The notes beneath the pieces were generated by a model. The model searched no databases. It worked only from the letters and a program-made list of their open reading frames with translations, and had not been told where the DNA came from. A stretch of DNA of 64,000 nucleotides from Acidobacteriota bacterium. Its GTDB lineage: Bacteria; Acidobacteriota; Thermoanaerobaculia; Gp7-AA8. The stretch lies in contig JAFATB010000022.1 of NCBI GenBank assembly GCA_019244185.1, positions 389,586-453,585 of the forward strand, written 5' to 3'. Every line of letters starts with the position of its first letter. Positions within the stretch are counted from its first letter, which is position 1. Shown one piece after another: positions 43,624 to 49,563 of this stretch. Position numbers and translations under genes: made by a program.

Positions 43624-45339
43624 CTAGGGCGCGCCGATGGCGCGCCGCACCGCACGAATGTCGCCGTCCAGCGGCCGGTCGTAAAAGACCGGCCGCGCGG
43701 CGCTGCGGATCGTGAGGTACAACGCGCGCGTTCCTTCGCCGAGCTGCGCGGCGATCTCATTCGCGCGATCGCGCACCGCGGCTTCGAACTGCTGCGCCTG
43801 CGCGTTCGCCTCGGCTTCGTTCGCGAGCTTCGTCGGCTTGTTCGGATCGATGTCGAACGCCGCGCGCCATTCGACGGCTTGCGCCGCCGCGAGCAGCTCG
43901 ATCGCGAGCACCGACTGCACGTTCGACAGCACCGTGCGCAGTTTGCGCGCGGCGTGCGTCGACATCGACACGTGGTCTTCCGTGTTCGCGCCGGTCGGGA
44001 TCGAGTCGACCGACGCGGGATGCGCGAGGACTTTATTCTCGGAGACGATCGACGCCGCGGTGTACTGCAGGATCATCAGCCCCGAATTCACGCCCGGTCG
44101 CGTGGTGAGGTTCTGCGGCAACCCGCGATTGTGATGGCCGTCGAGCATCAACTGCGTGCGGCGCTCGCTGATGTTCCCGAGTTCGTGAATGGCGATGGTG
44201 AGGAAGTCCGCCGCGAGCGCGAGCGGCTGACCGTGGAAGTTGCCGGCGGAGTACGCGAGCCGGCGATCGCCGTGATACCACTCCGGCCAGTTCGCGCGGA
44301 ACTGCAGGTCGAAGGGGTCGCCTTCGTCGGGGAAGAACAGCGGATTGTCGGTCGCCGCGTTGAGCTCGCGCTCCGCGGTCGCGCGCACGAAGCGCAACGT
44401 GTCGCGCGTCGCGCCGTGCACCTGCGGCGCGCAGCGCAGCGAATACGGATCCTGCACCGCGCCCGCGCGCTCGACGAGCCGGCTGCCGGCGAGCAGCGCG
44501 CCGATGCGTTGCGCGCTCTCGATCTGTCCCGGATGTCCGCGCTCCGCGTGCACTTTCGGATCGAGCGCGCGCGTGCAGCCGGCGAGCGCTTCGAGCGACA
44601 GCGCGGCCGCGGCGTCGGCATGATCGGCGAGCCGCTCCGCGTCGTACACCGCGAGCGCGAGCATCGCCGCGGAGAAGTTTGCACCGTTGACGAGGCCGAG
44701 TCCTTCCTTGAAGGTCGGCTTCAGTTCATCCGCGGAGAACCCGAGCACCTCGGGCAGCTCGCGCGCGGAACGGAGCGTGCGGTCGGAGGTCGTGTAGAAG
44801 CGGCCTTCTCCAAGCAGCGTGGCGAAGAGATGCGATAGCGGACAGAGATCGCCGCTCGCCCCGACCGAACCGCGCAGCGGGACGAGCGGAATCACGCCGC
44901 GGTTGAGCATCGCCCGCACGATCTCGACGAGCCGCATGCGCACGCCGCTGCGACCTTTGAGAAACGCGTTGAGCCGCGTGGCGAGCGCGCCGCGGACGAC
45001 TTCGGCGGGGTAGTAGTTTGCGAGATCGTCGGGATCGGAGTTGTCGCCGACGCCGACGGAATGCGAGAGCAGCAGGTTGCGCTGCAGCTGTTCGAGATCG
45101 TCCGGCGCGATCGGCTTGTCTTTGAATTCGCCGAAGCCGGTCGTGACGCCGTATTCGGAGATCTTGCCGCCCTGCGCGTATGCCTCGCGATGCTGCGCGA
45201 CGACGCGCGCGATCGCGGCTTCGCTGCGGCGCACGGCGGGCTCGGTCTTCGGATCGATGTCGACCGTGACCGACGGATCGCGGGCGATCGATGCGAGCTG
45301 CTCGATCGTCAGCGACGCGCCGTCGAGCACGACGTTCAT
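43624..45339 (-). CDS. hutH: Histidine ammonia-lyase (aromatic amino-acid lyase family, MIO cofactor)
   Basis: GSVGASGDLCPLSH (Ala-Ser-Gly MIO triad), 571 aa; start ATG overlaps hisS stop (ATGA). Confidence 0.85.
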   Translation of the reverse strand: MNVVLDGASLTIEQLASIARDPSVTVDIDPKTEPAVRRSEAAIARVVAQHREAYAQGGKISEYGVTTGFGEFKDKPIAPDDLEQLQRNLLLSHSVGVGDNSDPDDLANYYPAEVVRGALATRLNAFLKGRSGVRMRLVEIVRAMLNRGVIPLVPLRGSVGASGDLCPLSHLFATLLGEGRFYTTSDRTLRSARELPEVLGFSADELKPTFKEGLGLVNGANFSAAMLALAVYDAERLADHADAAAALSLEALAGCTRALDPKVHAERGHPGQIESAQRIGALLAGSRLVERAGAVQDPYSLRCAPQVHGATRDTLRFVRATAERELNAATDNPLFFPDEGDPFDLQFRANWPEWYHGDRRLAYSAGNFHGQPLALAADFLTIAIHELGNISERRTQLMLDGHHNRGLPQNLTTRPGVNSGLMILQYTAASIVSENKVLAHPASVDSIPTGANTEDHVSMSTHAARKLRTVLSNVQSVLAIELLAAAQAVEWRAAFDIDPNKPTKLANEAEANAQAQQFEAAVRDRANEIAAQLGEGTRALYLTIRSAARPVFYDRPLDGDIRAVRRAIGAP

Positions 45340-46760
45340 TCGAGCTCCGCGAGCATCCGGCGGATGCCGTCGACGAGCTCCGCGCGCGGCATCGTGACCT
45401 GCCCGGCGCGTTGCGCGAGGTACTCCTTGCGATCGGCGACCGGCTTCGCGCGCTCGCGTCCCGCGACCATGTCCTTCACGGTGACGATGCCTTCCGCGTG
45501 CTCGTTGCCGCCGTACAGCAGCGCGAGCGGGATGTCGTACTGGTCGGCGTACTTGAGCTGCTTGCCGACGCCTTTCGCGGTGCCGAGGTAGAGCTCCGTC
45601 GGAATGCCGGCGCGGCGCAGCTCCCACGTCATGGCGAGATACTCCTGTTCGAGCGACTCGTCCATGCGCGCGACGAGCACGCGCGCGGTCGCTTTGCGCT
45701 TGCCGATTTTTCCGAGCTGCGTGAGCGCGGCGAGGAGACGATCGACGCCGATCGACGCACCGACGGCAGGGATCGATTGCCCGAGGAAGCGCATCACGAG
45801 ATCGTCGTAACGGCCGCCGCCGAAGACGGAGCCGAACTGCGGCGCTTCCGTGAGAATCGCTTCGAACACCGGACCGGTGTAGTACGCGAGTCCGCGAGCG
45901 ATCGAGAGATCGAGCGAGACGCGATCGTCGCCGTAGCCCAAAACGTAGAGGTTCGAGGAGATGCGCTCGATGACGTCGATCTGCGCGGGCGCGTTCTCGA
46001 CGTGCGCGAACAACTCGCGCAGGCTGGTGAGCACTTCGCGGCGCGATTCGGATTTGATGGCGAGGAACTGTTCGATGCGATCGACCTGCTCGGACGTGAG
46101 GCCGACGCCGCGGATGGTGTCTCCCGATTCGTCGACGTAGCCGTTCATCAGCTCGCGCCGCACTTTTTCGACTCCGACTTTGTCGAGCTTGTCGAGCACG
46201 CGGAAGACGTCGACGCCCTGCTCGGCGGAGATGCCCGCGAACGCGAGCAGGAGATTCAGCACCGCGCGGCTGGAGAAGCGGACGAGATAGCCGCCGACGT
46301 CGAGCGCGCCGAGGGTGTCGCACATGCCCGCGATGATCTCGGTGTCCGCGATCTCGCTCACGACGCCGACGGAGTCGAGATCGAACTGGATGAACTCGCG
46401 GTAACGCCCTTTGTCCGGCTTGTCCGCGCGCCACACCGGCGCAACCTGATAGCGGCGGAACGGCCGTGGCAACTCGCGCTCGCTGTACTGCGCGATGACG
46501 CGCGCGAGCGGCACGGTCAGATCGAAGCGCAATCCCAATTCCTCGTGCTCCGGATTCGTGACGCGAAAGATCGACTGCTGCGCCTCGGCGCCCGCGCTGC
46601 CCGACAGGACGTCCAGAAACTCGACCGCCGGCGTCGACAACGGCACGAAGCCGTAGTTCTCGTACACCCCGCGAATGGTGTCGATCATCTGCTGCCGCGC
46701 CAGCATCTGGTCGGGAAGCAGATCGCGAAGGCCGCGGGAAAGGCGGGGAGAGGTGGTCAT
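45336..46760 (-). CDS. hisS: Histidine--tRNA ligase
   Basis: class II motifs (RYQVAPVWRADKPDKGRYREFIQFD, GGGRYD), C-terminal anticodon-binding domain; 474 aa. Confidence 0.9.
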   Translation of the reverse strand: MTTSPRLSRGLRDLLPDQMLARQQMIDTIRGVYENYGFVPLSTPAVEFLDVLSGSAGAEAQQSIFRVTNPEHEELGLRFDLTVPLARVIAQYSERELPRPFRRYQVAPVWRADKPDKGRYREFIQFDLDSVGVVSEIADTEIIAGMCDTLGALDVGGYLVRFSSRAVLNLLLAFAGISAEQGVDVFRVLDKLDKVGVEKVRRELMNGYVDESGDTIRGVGLTSEQVDRIEQFLAIKSESRREVLTSLRELFAHVENAPAQIDVIERISSNLYVLGYGDDRVSLDLSIARGLAYYTGPVFEAILTEAPQFGSVFGGGRYDDLVMRFLGQSIPAVGASIGVDRLLAALTQLGKIGKRKATARVLVARMDESLEQEYLAMTWELRRAGIPTELYLGTAKGVGKQLKYADQYDIPLALLYGGNEHAEGIVTVKDMVAGRERAKPVADRKEYLAQRAGQVTMPRAELVDGIRRMLAELE

Positions 46761-46772
46761 GAGAAGCGGAAT

Positions 46773-46898
46773 GTAGAACGCAGAACGCAGAACGCAGAAT
46801 GAAGAAAGGGGAACGATGCGCAGTCGCGGGGCGACGGCATTTCTACGTTCTTACTTCTGCGTTCTGCGTTCTTCATTCCGCCGCCGCCAGGCGGCGGC
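46773..46898. repeat. Composite element between tRNA-His and hisS: (GAACGCA)x3 + GAATGAAGAA on one side, inverted copies TTCTTCATTC + (TGCGTTC)x2 on the other, plus an 8-bp GC hairpin (46880-46898) abutting the tRNA 3' end; lower GC than surroundings
   Basis: read directly; elements A/B/A'/B' arranged so that A:A' and B:B' pairings are mutually exclusive. Confidence 0.5.
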
Positions 46899-46899
46899 T

Positions 46900-46976
46900 T
46901 GGTACCGGGGGCCGGTCTCGAACCGGCGACCCCCAGATCCACAATCTGGTGCTCTGACCAACTGAGCTACCCCGGC
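46900..46976 (-). tRNA. tRNA-His (anticodon GTG) with encoded CCA, G1-U72, A73 and no encoded G-1
   Basis: hand-folded cloverleaf: acceptor GCCGGGG/CCCCGGU, D-arm GCUC-AGUUGGUCA-GAGC, anticodon arm CCAGA-UUGUGGA-UCUGG, variable GGGUC, T-arm GCCGG-UUCGAGA-CCGGC, A73, CCA; nucleotide at -1 is U. Confidence 0.85.
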
Positions 46977-47071
46977 ACTCGGGCGGGCATGATACTCGGG
47001 CACGCAGACGAGGGGAAGAGGCGCGCTCCGTGCCGTCCGCGCGTGAGAACGCCGCATCCCGCGAACGCATT

Positions 47072-47332
47072 TCAGACGAAGACGTATTCGTCCGCGGCCG
47101 CGCCACGCCCCGCGAACGTGACCATCGCGTACTGGCGCCGCCGCCCGATGCCGTCGATCGCGGCGATGGTGTACGTGCTGCGCGCGCCCTCCAACAGGCC
47201 GGGGGGCGGATCGCCGGAGCCCACGACGACGATCCGTCCCGAAGAAATGCGCGCCCGCCGCGTACGCCATTGCACCGCGCTCTGGTCGTTGACGACCAGC
47301 ACATCGCACAACCGGACGGCGGGCTCGCTCAT
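47072..47332 (-). CDS. Small hypothetical protein
   Basis: ORF only (MSEPAVRLCDVLVVNDQSAVQW...), no recognisable motif. Confidence 0.3.
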   Translation of the reverse strand: MSEPAVRLCDVLVVNDQSAVQWRTRRARISSGRIVVVGSGDPPPGLLEGARSTYTIAAIDGIGRRRQYAMVTFAGRGAAADEYVFV

Positions 47333-47419
47333 GGTGAAGGCGACAATCTCCGAAGCGTGAGTCCTGCGCCCGCGATGATAGATCAACTTCTATCCGTCAA
47401 AATGTCCAAAATTGCACAA

Positions 47420-48091
47420 TCAGTCACTATCCAGCAGCTGCAGCGCTTTCCGCCGATGCACGGCGATCGAGCGTCCCGCCGTCACGACGATGCCGCGTTT
47501 GCGGAAGCGCTGCATGAATACGGTGATGCGCGGCCGCGTGGTGCCGACGATCTGCGAGAGCTCTTCCTGCGAGATGCGCAGGTCGACGCGCGCGTAGTCG
47601 CCGTCGATGCTGCCGAGTTTCTCCGCGATGCCGAGCAACACTTTCGCGAGCCGCTTCTCGGCGTCCATCGTGACGAGGTCGAACACCGCCACCTGCCGCT
47701 CGGCGAGCCGCAGCGCGAGGTGCCGCAACAGCATCTCCATCGCGGAGGCTTTCTCGACTTCCACGAGATAATCGCGCCGCAACACTTTGCGCACGAAGGT
47801 GCGCTGCATCGCGGACGCGGTCTCGTTCCTGCGGCCGCTGTCGAGAAAACACGATTCGCCGAAGACATCGCCGGCGGCGTAAATCGCGAGCACGCAATCC
47901 TTGCCGCTGGCGGAAGACATGGACAGCTTCACCTGTCCCGACTCGATCAGGTACATGGCGTCGTCTTCGTCCCCCGTGGCATAGATCGCTTGCTGGGCAT
48001 CAGCGCGCAAGCGCGCCACCGGCAACGACTCGCGATCGAAAATGTCGCGAAGGGACGGTAGCGAATGGGCGCGGCCGTCTTTGGAAGGCAT
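47420..48091 (-). CDS. Crp/FNR-family transcriptional regulator
   Basis: cNMP-binding beta-roll (YLIESGQVKL...GDVFGE) + C-terminal HTH (SQEELSQIVGTTRPRITVFMQRFRKRG). Confidence 0.85.
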   Translation of the reverse strand: MPSKDGRAHSLPSLRDIFDRESLPVARLRADAQQAIYATGDEDDAMYLIESGQVKLSMSSASGKDCVLAIYAAGDVFGESCFLDSGRRNETASAMQRTFVRKVLRRDYLVEVEKASAMEMLLRHLALRLAERQVAVFDLVTMDAEKRLAKVLLGIAEKLGSIDGDYARVDLRISQEELSQIVGTTRPRITVFMQRFRKRGIVVTAGRSIAVHRRKALQLLDSD

Positions 48092-48386
48092 CTGGAAAAA
48101 TGCGTCGCGATCGTAGGCACCACCGAACGCTTCGTCTGTTCAGTATTGGACATGCCTTTCATGCCGTTGCGCATCACGGCTACGCCGCGGAGAAACTCGC
48201 GCAAGTTCGTGCGCAGTACGCATGCGCACTGAATCGACCGCGCCACGCGGCCGACGCGCACACCCGGAGCGGCATCGTGCACCATCACCAGACGGAGTGC
48301 CGCAACCCGCGCCGATGCGGCTCACGATCCTGCGCACGCTCTGGCGTCGTGGCGCGCTTCGTGTGGTCTACGCGAGGGAGATACGA

Positions 48387-48544
48387 CCGGGAGCGCCTCC
48401 GGCGGGCCGGCGCGGCCGGCAGCGCTGAGGGCTTAGCCAGTACGCACGTGCGGCTGCTGTCACCACGCTCGCCGCGACCGCACGTGCGGATAGGCTAGGC
48501 CCTCAGCGCTGTCGGCCGTGCCGGCCCGCCGGAGGCGCTCTGGG
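48387..48544. repeat. 158-bp imperfect inverted repeat (two 67-nt arms, ~88% complementary, 24-nt spacer) in intergenic region
   Basis: arms 48387-48453 and 48478-48544 aligned by hand; 5 of 8 mismatches are G-U/U-G pairs when folded as plus-strand RNA. Confidence 0.5.
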
Positions 48545-48555
48545 TCGTCCTCTCC

Positions 48556-49563
48556 CTATGAAGCCACGAAGAGCGCGTCGGCGAACCACGCGCGGGCGTC
48601 GGTCCAGAGGTGCGCGATCGTGAAGCCGGAGGATTGGGCGAGGGCGGCGAGGGTGGACTCGTCGTGTTTGTAGGAGCTCTCGGTGTGGATCGTTTCGGCT
48701 TCGGCGAAATCGACGCTCAGATCGAGGGCGGCGAGGTGGACGCGTTGCGGTTGCGTGCTCACGAGGTGCATCTCGATGCGGCCGAGGGGCTCGTTGTAGA
48801 AGGCGCGGTGGGTGAAGCGGTCGAGCGCGAAGTCGGCGTTGAGTTCGCGGTTCATGCGCACGAGGAGATTCTTGTTGAAGGCGGCGGTGACGCCGAGGGG
48901 GTCGTCGTAGGCGGGTTCGAGAACGTTGCGCGGCTTGCGGAGATCGGCGCCGAGGAGCAGCGCGTCGCCGCGGGAGAGTGCGGAGCGGAGATCGCGGAGC
49001 ATCGCGATCGCGGCGTCGGGATCGAGATTGCCGATGGTCGAGCCGAGGAAAAGGACCACGTTGCGGCCGCGATGGGGGCCAAGCATCGCGAGCGACGACG
49101 ACGGCGACGCGAAGTCGGCGCGGACGGCGGTGATGCGGAGGTGCGGATAGTCGGCGAGCAGCTCGCGCGCGGAGCGTTCGAGCATCGACGCGTCGACGTC
49201 GACGGGAACGTATTCGAGCTCACGCTGGCGTTCCGTCAGGACGTCGAGGAGGATGCGCGTCTTGCGCGCGGCGCCGCTGCCGAGCTCCACGAGGCGCACC
49301 TGGGCGCCGAACGCATCGCAGATTTCGCTCGCGTGCGCGTGCAGCACCTCGGCTTCCGCGCGCATCACGTAGTACTCGGGCAGAAAACAGATCGCGTCGA
49401 AGAGCGAGGATCCGAGCTCGTCGTAGAACCAGCGCGGCGGGAGCGACTTGCGGGACGCGGTGAGACCGCGGCGGACGTCGTCCGCGAAATCGCCGGCCGC
49501 GACGGCGCCGTGGCGCAGCGTGAACCGTGACGTGGGCGAGACCGGGACGGCGGCTGCGCACAT
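48556..49563 (-). CDS. egtD: L-histidine N(alpha)-methyltransferase (EgtD-like, ergothioneine pathway first step)
   Basis: KSLPPRWFYDELGSSLFDAICFLPEYY, LVELGSGAARKTRILLD SAM motif, LFLGSTIGNL, strong collinearity with mycobacterial EgtD. Confidence 0.85.
   Translation of the reverse strand: MCAAAVPVSPTSRFTLRHGAVAAGDFADDVRRGLTASRKSLPPRWFYDELGSSLFDAICFLPEYYVMRAEAEVLHAHASEICDAFGAQVRLVELGSGAARKTRILLDVLTERQRELEYVPVDVDASMLERSARELLADYPHLRITAVRADFASPSSSLAMLGPHRGRNVVLFLGSTIGNLDPDAAIAMLRDLRSALSRGDALLLGADLRKPRNVLEPAYDDPLGVTAAFNKNLLVRMNRELNADFALDRFTHRAFYNEPLGRIEMHLVSTQPQRVHLAALDLSVDFAEAETIHTESSYKHDESTLAALAQSSGFTIAHLWTDARAWFADALFVAS

Follow-up and report, generated by a model that had tools for sequence, protein, structure and literature searches.

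A 181-nt palindrome that abuts the stop codon of an egtD-like gene is, at a probability of roughly 85%, one copy of a dispersed family of non-coding palindromic repeats carried by a clade of uncultured soil Thermoanaerobaculia (Acidobacteriota). We file the element as REPIN-like, meaning a REP/REPIN/MITE-like repeat rather than a proven REPIN, because it is without the GT[AG]G/CGTC tag and a search of the window and 170 loci turned up no cognate transposase. The copy lies in a 64-kb stretch of DNA, the whole of which was analysed and is called the window below.

Structure of the hairpin behind egtD

An inverted-repeat search returned two 71-nt arms (48383-48453 and 48478-48548) that are 89% complementary around a 24-nt spacer. 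The inverted repeat claimed in an earlier, sequence-only reading of this DNA is genuine, its 67-nt arms falling inside those found here, and a base-by-base count reproduced its eight mismatches, five of them transitions compatible with G-U pairing on the plus strand. The resulting G-U or U-G pairs are 48390/48541, 48412/48519, 48419/48512, 48433/48498 and 48440/48491; the remaining three mismatches (48389/48542, 48439/48492 and 48442/48489) are transversions. A 1-nt shift extends the pairing of the arms to 48376-48556, giving a full hairpin of 181 nt, larger than first noted, whose outermost pair uses the G of the egtD-like TAG stop codon. Of the two sequences put forward as palindromic cores, CGCACGTGCG is a true palindrome and AGCGCTGAGGGC is not, AGCGCT being the only palindromic part of it. 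The parts of the window copy and its neighboring genes are as follows.

48376-48556, no strand assigned: whole palindromic element, 181 nt (repeat search, folds and base-by-base pairing)
48384-48426, plus strand: left conserved end, a REP-like module, 90-100% conserved across the family (stacked ends, 65-arm alignment); it runs from CGAC (48384-48387) through the invariant GAGCGCCTCCGGCGGG (48391-48406) on to ...GGCAGCGCT
48406-48420, plus strand: left intra-arm mini stem-loop, GCCGGC-GCG-GCCGGC, with a 6-bp stem and a 3-nt loop (within-arm covariation)
48427-48504, plus strand: subfamily-specific interior, itself palindromic (signature from the metagenome scan; 17-copy alignment with compensatory changes), the CGCACGTGCG cores being 48443-48452 and 48479-48488, the internal loop 4 nt long and the apical spacer 24 nt (48454-48477)
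48505-48547, minus strand: right conserved end, a REP-like module, with the invariant motif at 48525-48540 and a terminal GTCG at 48544-48547
48511-48525, plus strand: right intra-arm mini stem-loop, GTCGGC-CGT-GCCGGC (base count, arm covariation)
48556-48558, minus strand: stop codon (TAG) that ends the egtD-like gene; the outermost paired base of the hairpin is the last of this codon
48556-49563, minus strand: egtD-like gene for an L-histidine N-alpha-methyltransferase (Pfam PF10017 Methyltransf_33, E = 3e-110; names of homologues)
47420-48091, minus strand: crp-like regulator gene (Pfam PF00027 cNMP_binding and PF13545 HTH_Crp_2)

Folded as RNA, the plus strand of the element has a minimum free energy (MFE) of -176.1 kcal/mol and the minus strand one of -163.1 kcal/mol. 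Against dinucleotide shuffles these folds have z-scores of -17.2 and -16.7, far beyond chance on either strand; the G+C content of the window is 67%. The asymmetric apex of the subfamily defines an intrinsic forward orientation, which for the window copy is the window plus strand (read this way it has 92.5% identity to the consensus of the subfamily, and 84.3% in reverse). In the right mini stem-loop, a private C>T change at 48512 leaves a T-G pair when the plus strand is read and C-A when the minus strand is. Across 65 arms, just one other departure is likewise confined to one side of the stem.

The Pfam matches bear out the earlier placement of the hairpin between an egtD-like and a crp-like gene, both on the minus strand; the crp-like gene starts 284 nt past the element on that strand. 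The same hairpin also directly follows the egtD stop codon in the two closest orthologues examined, L004 (85% EgtD identity) and L005 (83%). A relative with 76% EgtD identity (L006-L009) keeps the egtD-crp gene order and has no hairpin, its egtD-crp spacer being 259 nt, 205 nt shorter than the 464 nt in the window. EgtD is 335 amino acids long in relatives both with and without the element, so the TAG here is the native stop codon and the element starts exactly at it. The orientation of the element in the window is opposite to that in L004 and L005, which suggests either an inversion in situ by recombination between the arms or an independent insertion at the same spot.

A dispersed family in Thermoanaerobaculia

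To look for further copies, we scanned one genome per prokaryotic species for GAGCGCCTCCGGCGGGSCGGC, a 21-nt block identical in all six arms compared first. At least 92 stretches matched, and among the matches listed more than 55 were on separate contigs of Thermoanaerobaculia/Acidobacteriota MAGs; within the same matches listed, five genomes contributed at least 12, 9, 9, 7 and 5 contigs and several others one or two. The arm motif occurs in at least 12 Thermoanaerobaculia/Acidobacteriota genomes, and a genome carries many copies of the family. Matches in other phyla were single chance occurrences that lacked the remainder of the element. Many matches came as plus/minus pairs about 120 nt apart, the same geometry as in the hairpin, and many lay less than 100 nt from a contig end, the pattern that a repeat would leave by breaking short-read assemblies. 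A scan of viral contigs gave no match to the arm motif, and a literature search found no published description of this family in Thermoanaerobaculia.

BLAST recovered about 30 full-length copies of the family in Thermoanaerobaculia/Acidobacteriota MAGs. Members of this wider family have their ends in common with the window copy and mostly not their interior. An interior signature specific to the window copy and to those of L004 and L005 (GCGCTRAGGGC-N9-13-GCASGTGCGG) identified 69 loci in metagenome contigs, with about 23 sites on the 1.66-Mb contig Ga0213873_10000001 and about 15 on the 1.30-Mb contig Ga0213882_10000002. The window holds one copy and no second one, which fits a density of about one per 70 kb. 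By BLAST and extraction we obtained 16 unique full-length paralogues of this subfamily, 85-91% identical to the window copy and none of them at an egtD locus; these come from contigs of close relatives, the source genome being counted through its 64-kb window only. The hairpin had earlier been taken, as the preferred reading, for a structured RNA, with the proviso that multiple dispersed, near-identical copies would speak against this, and many dispersed, closely related copies are what we found.

The window has another strong hairpin at 46766-46881, between the tRNA-His gene and hisS, formed by inverted runs of the heptamer GAACGCA. It recurs as plus/minus pairs in eight loci from the same genome group. 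Together with the REPIN-like family, this repeat means that the lineage carries at least two palindromic repeat families.

Architecture and covariation

Each element of the family is an inverted doublet, with two conserved modules of about 50 nt flanking a variable spacer that usually forms a hairpin. The ends are 90-100% conserved across species-level genomes, compared with about 72-77% over the whole element. When about 80 family ends were stacked, the consensus at the start of conservation read ...RGGGRRACGAC-SRG-GAGCGCCTCCGGCGGGCCGGC-RCG-GCCGGCAGCGCT. The interior of about 75 nt varies between subfamilies, is not palindromic in most of them and is present in both orientations. The span from motif to motif is about 103-152 nt, mostly 125-150 nt, and all full-length copies are inverted doublets; decayed half-copies (solo arms) also exist. 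An ORF spanning the element and supported by third-position G+C (GC3) is absent in 26 of 28 family copies. REPINs are likewise defined by a pair of inverted, highly conserved ends that each overlap with a REP palindrome; the spacer between them is less conserved, yet its length and pairing are important, and compensatory changes are common (PMC3116915).

Inside each arm lies a mini stem-loop, GCCGGC-NNN-GCCGGC, whose variants are overwhelmingly compensated within the same arm. Examples are GCCGCC-ACG-GGCGGC, GCCGAC-GCG-GTCGGC, GCCGGT-GCG-ACCGGC and GGCGGC-ACG-GCCGCC, along with one whose stem is 7 bp long. In the other arm of such an element the standard stem-loop sequence is often retained; the compensation is not between arms. 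In the 65-arm alignment the intra-arm helix is paired in 99.5% of cells, with double changes at three of its six pairs. None of 500 shuffles matched the observed covariation on four of five measures (6 of 500 did for further pair types), and controls in which the helix was slid along the alignment collapsed. The long hairpin is also well kept in the window subfamily, where the 17-copy alignment has double changes at 9 of 64 inter-arm pairs. The conserved structural unit is thus the stem-loop in each arm, and two of these units, inverted relative to each other, make up the 180-nt hairpin.

Placement at the 3' ends of genes

In the wider family, almost all full-length copies directly adjoin one or more gene stop codons, and six of them occupy the space between genes that converge; for this analysis genes were called by third-position G+C. 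Within the subfamily, an ORF ends 4-35 nt from the arm motif, at or inside the element terminus, in 15 of 17 well-assembled copies, and 6 of the 17 lie between convergent ORFs. At one such locus (L140) both ORFs stop at a TGA within the terminal motif. We compared the observed placement with a conservative null in which the element was deleted and then put at random into the non-ORF space of the same loci: stop adjacency was 7.6% in the null and 10 of 17 observed (P = 8e-8), the observed figure being an undercount, since deletion of the element removes some overlapping stop codons. With respect to the gene next to them, copies may point either way (5:4 in the subfamily). We also considered whether stop-like triplets might be a fixed part of the element, and ruled this out: anything from 1 to 28 nt separates the stop codon and the invariant CGAC. 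Published REP and TIR repeats sit downstream of ORFs and between convergent ORFs as well (PMC3733652).

Strand bias and the possibility of an RNA gene

The sequence-only reading preferred the gene for a structured, non-coding RNA, about 160 nt long and transcribed from the plus strand, antisense to its neighbors, with its hairpin kept by selection at the RNA level. We consider this very unlikely. What speaks for it is that all five transition mismatches pair as G-U on the plus strand, that the plus-strand MFE is 13 kcal/mol below that of the minus strand, and that the 17-copy alignment, in the window-plus-like orientation, has 44 G-U cells against 11 A-C cells (20 against 11 without the two consensus U-G positions). 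However, three of the five G-U pairs in the window copy are shared subfamily states and not independent events. U-G at 48433/48498 is the subfamily consensus, present in 13 of 17 copies; G-U at 48412/48519 falls in the loop of the mini stem-loop, reflects a family-wide A/G polymorphism and is common to four paralogues; and the pair at 48390/48541 is common to three. Only 48419/48512 and 48440/48491 are private to the window copy. Two such events are too few to count statistically, given that p would be only 0.06 even for five that were independent. The bias once read as the mark of RNA selection is accounted for by subfamily inheritance plus these two private changes.

Nor is a strand favored consistently. 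When the asymmetric apex is used to orient the 16 paralogues, the more stable strand is the window-plus-like one in 6 and the opposite one in 10; in the wider family it is gene-sense in 8 copies and antisense in 7. The orientation of the element relative to the adjacent gene is random, that at the egtD site itself is reversed in L004 and L005, and the copies are dispersed in their dozens. A comparison with Rfam, which had been suggested alongside the RNA proposal, gave sub-threshold miRNA and snoRNA matches only, hairpin look-alikes from plant and viral miRNAs, of which the best was the plant miRNA precursor MIR8788 (45 bits against a gathering threshold of 124). Neither the element nor its surroundings showed any signal resembling a promoter or a terminator. 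Dispersed copies, inherited G-U states, an inconsistent strand and the lack of Rfam or promoter matches together lead us to set the RNA gene aside. The residual excess of 20 G-U over 11 A-C cells comes from cells that are not independent, and the energy comparison does not follow it; we take it as no more than a weak hint. If real, a strand-specific single-stranded DNA intermediate would explain it more naturally than an RNA gene.

How the element may have spread

The spread of the family would be non-autonomous and of the REP/REPIN type: a HuH-Y1 tyrosine transposase acting in trans would recognize the folded stem-loop of an arm, cut the element out and insert it again in the form of single-stranded DNA. 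That this enzyme is a single-copy HuH-Y1 transposase of the RAYT, TIRYT or class-3 type, recognizing the intra-arm stem-loops, is a tentative proposal that we place somewhat below even odds. We infer it from the selected stem-loop within each arm, the lack of target duplication and the REPIN-like doublet, and from the enzymes present in the phylum: RAYT-like TIRYT genes occur in Acidobacteria (PMC3733652), as do class-3 Y1 genes with high-copy secondary structures on either side (PMC6006769). A tblastn search and a six-frame scan for HuH and Y motifs, covering the window and 170 loci (1.2 Mb), found no RAYT, TIRYT or Y1 gene; the search had low power, as such genes are usually single-copy; the tblastn query was an approximate E. 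coli RayT sequence and serves as a lead only. We saw no solo arms adjoining a Y1-type gene. Next to the intra-arm stem-loop there is neither GTAG nor CGTC; the terminal tetranucleotide that is invariant, CGAC, lies about 20 nt from it. GTA[GA] is found at the outer foot of about one third of ends, where it overlaps host stop codons and may simply be those.

The sequence-only reading had named a miniature inverted-repeat element as its alternative, and for the kind of element this was essentially right, although the lack of a target-site duplication and the REP-doublet anatomy make the REPIN-like description the better fit. A classical MITE, a deletion derivative of a DDE-type IS moved in trans as double-stranded DNA by cut-and-paste through its terminal inverted repeats (TIRs), would also have long terminal inverted repeats, a non-coding body of 150-180 nt, many dispersed copies, presence/absence polymorphism as at the egtD site and interiors that differ among subfamilies. 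We nevertheless think it improbable. No direct-repeat target-site duplication was seen at the boundaries of about 45 full-length copies, where flank similarity, if present, is inverted, and more than 160 loci, an incomplete sample, held neither an IS with the same ends nor a pair of ends enclosing a gene. The conserved feature within each end is a covarying stem-loop, which points to recognition of folded single strands and not to binding of duplex TIRs, and the conserved ends of about 50 nt exceed the 15-30-bp TIRs typical of bacterial MITEs (PMC3733652). There is next to no chance that the palindrome is an assembly artefact, a fold-back chimera that gives a false palindrome. Such chimeras do exist among the collected loci: in L015 and L081, both left out of the analysis, local alignment showed the palindrome continuing to the contig end, and short-read contigs break within the hairpin. 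In the window, however, the flanks are different genes that are not complementary, the two arms differ at eight positions and each is independently backed by Logan contigs entering from its own side (L001/L002 and L003); 16 similar intact copies lie on long contigs.

Comparison with known repeat families

REPINs and REP-BIMEs are mobilized by RAYT (TnpA_REP) Y1 transposases. The family described here resembles them (Pseudomonas fluorescens GI-GIII; E. coli) in being an inverted doublet of palindromic modules that forms one long hairpin, with ends far more conserved than the spacer and compensatory changes that preserve the hairpin. It also shares with REPINs and REPs its extragenic, high-copy and lineage-restricted occurrence, its sites downstream of ORFs or between convergent ones, its decayed singlets and its lack of target-site duplication. 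It differs in size, being 150-180 nt long with ends of about 50 nt, compared with 71-110 nt for classical REPINs. In place of the GT[AG]G tag of REPs it has an invariant CGAC, no cognate RAYT turned up for it in the 1.2 Mb searched, and its module is a 6-bp stem with a 3-nt loop set inside a longer conserved block.

From the same phylum are the TIR repeats of TIRYTs (Di Nocera et al., 2013) and the atypical secondary structures that flank class-3 HuH-Y1 genes (Quentin et al., 2018), both described in Acidobacteria. Like the present family they have long inverted-repeat ends that are often self-complementary, form dimers and reach moderate to high copy numbers (about 600 in Solibacter usitatus). 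The terminal G-run motif of TIRYTs, GGGGWSAS, has a counterpart in the GGGGAGAC, GGGGACAC or GGGRRACGAC of the family, whereas the CnGA foot of class 3 is not clearly present; the comparison of CnGA and GGGGWSAS with the termini was made by eye from the published motifs only, and we note a partial resemblance and claim no membership. The TIRYT and class-3 families were described in Terriglobia/Bryobacteria-type genomes and not in Thermoanaerobaculia.

The Correia/NEMIS, ERIC, RUP and SMAG elements, bacterial MITEs whose RNA hairpins act beside genes, are similar in size, terminal inverted repeats, insertion near genes, co-transcription and strong secondary structure. MITEs differ in their 15-30-bp TIRs, in target-site duplications such as TA and in having a related IS; we found none of the three for this family. 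E. coli REPs adjacent to stop codons are alike in that a stable extragenic hairpin begins where the gene upstream stops, or no more than a few nucleotides later.

A possible role at the 3' ends of host genes

On the minus strand the element would be transcribed as the first part of the egtD 3' UTR, forming a very stable hairpin (about -160 kcal/mol). Such a hairpin would be likely to protect the 3' end of the transcript, to limit read-through toward the crp-like gene, or both. It could also, by analogy with E. coli REPs, impede terminating ribosomes, since the element begins at the stop codon. According to Liang, Rudd and Deutscher in 2015, E. coli REPs within 15 nt of a stop codon reportedly cause ribosome stalling and reduced expression, an effect seen in experiments in E. 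coli only. The chances that the hairpin has some cis effect on the egtD 3' end, whether stabilizing it or acting on read-through or termination, seem to us evenly balanced.

One may go further and suppose that the whole family exists for the host, as factor-independent bidirectional terminators or 3'-end stabilizers kept by selection and not by selfish spread. The extreme bias toward sites just after stop codons and between convergent genes would follow from this, as would the very stable hairpins on both strands, the independence of orientation and the retention of the element at the egtD site in lineages 15-17% apart in EgtD. There is no U-tract or T-run on either side or strand, although termination by a hairpin only would be compatible with that. 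Also against a host-function origin, which we regard as unlikely, the ends share their sequence across unrelated loci and species-level genomes, a sign of copying and not of convergent evolution; decayed half-copies exist, and the relative without the element keeps the same gene order. A host role is compatible with the preferred reading of a dispersed REPIN-like repeat, as a secondary, exapted function.

More speculatively, and as something of a long shot, the family could represent an undescribed REPIN-type replicator that inserts as single-stranded DNA immediately 3' of stop codons and has been co-opted by its hosts as an orientation-independent terminator or 3'-end insulator without a U-tract. 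If this were true, the slight forward-strand excess of G-T-tolerant mismatches would mark the strand that is excised and folded in transposition.

Implications

What is known of egtD or crp function is unchanged, beyond the suggestion of a strong 3' UTR hairpin between the two genes. For genome annotation, a false ncRNA candidate is removed and a repeat family with a consensus is defined for an uncultured acidobacterial class. The family breaks short-read assemblies at reproducible points and gives rise to chimeric contigs that fold back on themselves; MAG quality is affected by both. Its existence is useful for annotation and for the study of site choice, and would not surprise a specialist. 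With dozens of copies, two orientations, stop adjacency and covariation within single arms, it provides a clean data set for questions of site choice and of a role as terminator, and it extends REPIN-like elements to the Thermoanaerobaculia.

Orientation of the element at the egtD site

The 181-nt palindromic element lies directly 3' of the egtD stop codon in the window (48376-48556), as do its counterparts at two orthologous egtD loci, L004 (4890-5057) and L005 (2524-2655). The asymmetric apex and loop of the window copy face the opposite way from those of L004 and L005: relative to egtD, the forward strand of the subfamily is the antisense strand in the window copy and the sense strand in the other two. 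Because of this reversal, we attribute the arrangement either to in-situ inversion by recombination between the arms or to separate insertions at one spot.

Assembly breaks and partial copies

The interior of the hairpin is a reproducible break point of short-read assemblies, occurring in contigs that cover the two sides of the window element (L001:11082, L002:1992 and L003:1) and in both egtD orthologue loci (L004:5057 and L005:2655). Two Logan contigs terminate within the CGCACGTGCG core, at the identical base; the contig on the crp side begins inside the hairpin, at window position 48412. Two MEGAHIT contigs, L015 and L081, are fold-back chimeras: beyond the element, and up to the contig end, they carry the preceding sequence again in reverse-complement form.

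Decayed half-copies consisting of a single arm were found mid-contig in two loci (L010:3611-3700 and L110:1719-1790); after one comes a small, unrelated GC-rich hairpin, and immediately after the other come the ribosome-binding site and start codon of the following gene.

Termini and outer flanks

A subset of copies (L018, L043, L054, L063, L078, L097 and others, SMAG_U14298 and SMAG_U13825) carries on both sides an extra outer module, TCGCTKNCGCT, upstream of the G-run and usually starting 0-2 nt past a stop codon. At three loci (L062, L063 and L076), the palindrome continues for 37-58 nt into flanking sequence particular to each copy and stops short of the contig end, which may reflect insertion into an already existing hairpin.

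In the subfamily copy at L140 (680-900), two convergent flanking ORFs both enter the palindrome. Since each stops at a TGA within the terminal CTGAC motif, two separate proteins have their final amino acids encoded by the complementary arms of one element.

Gene neighbourhood and a second palindromic repeat

The genes at window positions 43627-49563 share a histidine theme and all lie on the minus strand; no egtB-like gene was found among the five neighbours scanned. The features are:

within 43627-49563, minus strand: aromatic amino-acid (histidine-type) ammonia-lyase (PF00221, E = 2e-164)
46760, minus strand: start of hisS
46766-46881: second strong hairpin
46900-46976, minus strand: tRNA-His(GTG)
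within 43627-49563, minus strand: crp-like regulator and egtD-like histidine methyltransferase

The second hairpin, flanked by tRNA-His and the hisS start, has an RNA MFE of -77 kcal/mol (z = -9), is built from the heptamer GAACGCA in inverted runs, and matches no Rfam family. A 17-mer from it recurs in eight fetched loci (L024, L041, L051, L109, L114, L120, L127 and L128), mostly as +/- pairs separated by 60-75 nt; the hairpin is therefore a member of a second dispersed palindromic repeat family, present in the same genomes as the egtD-side element.
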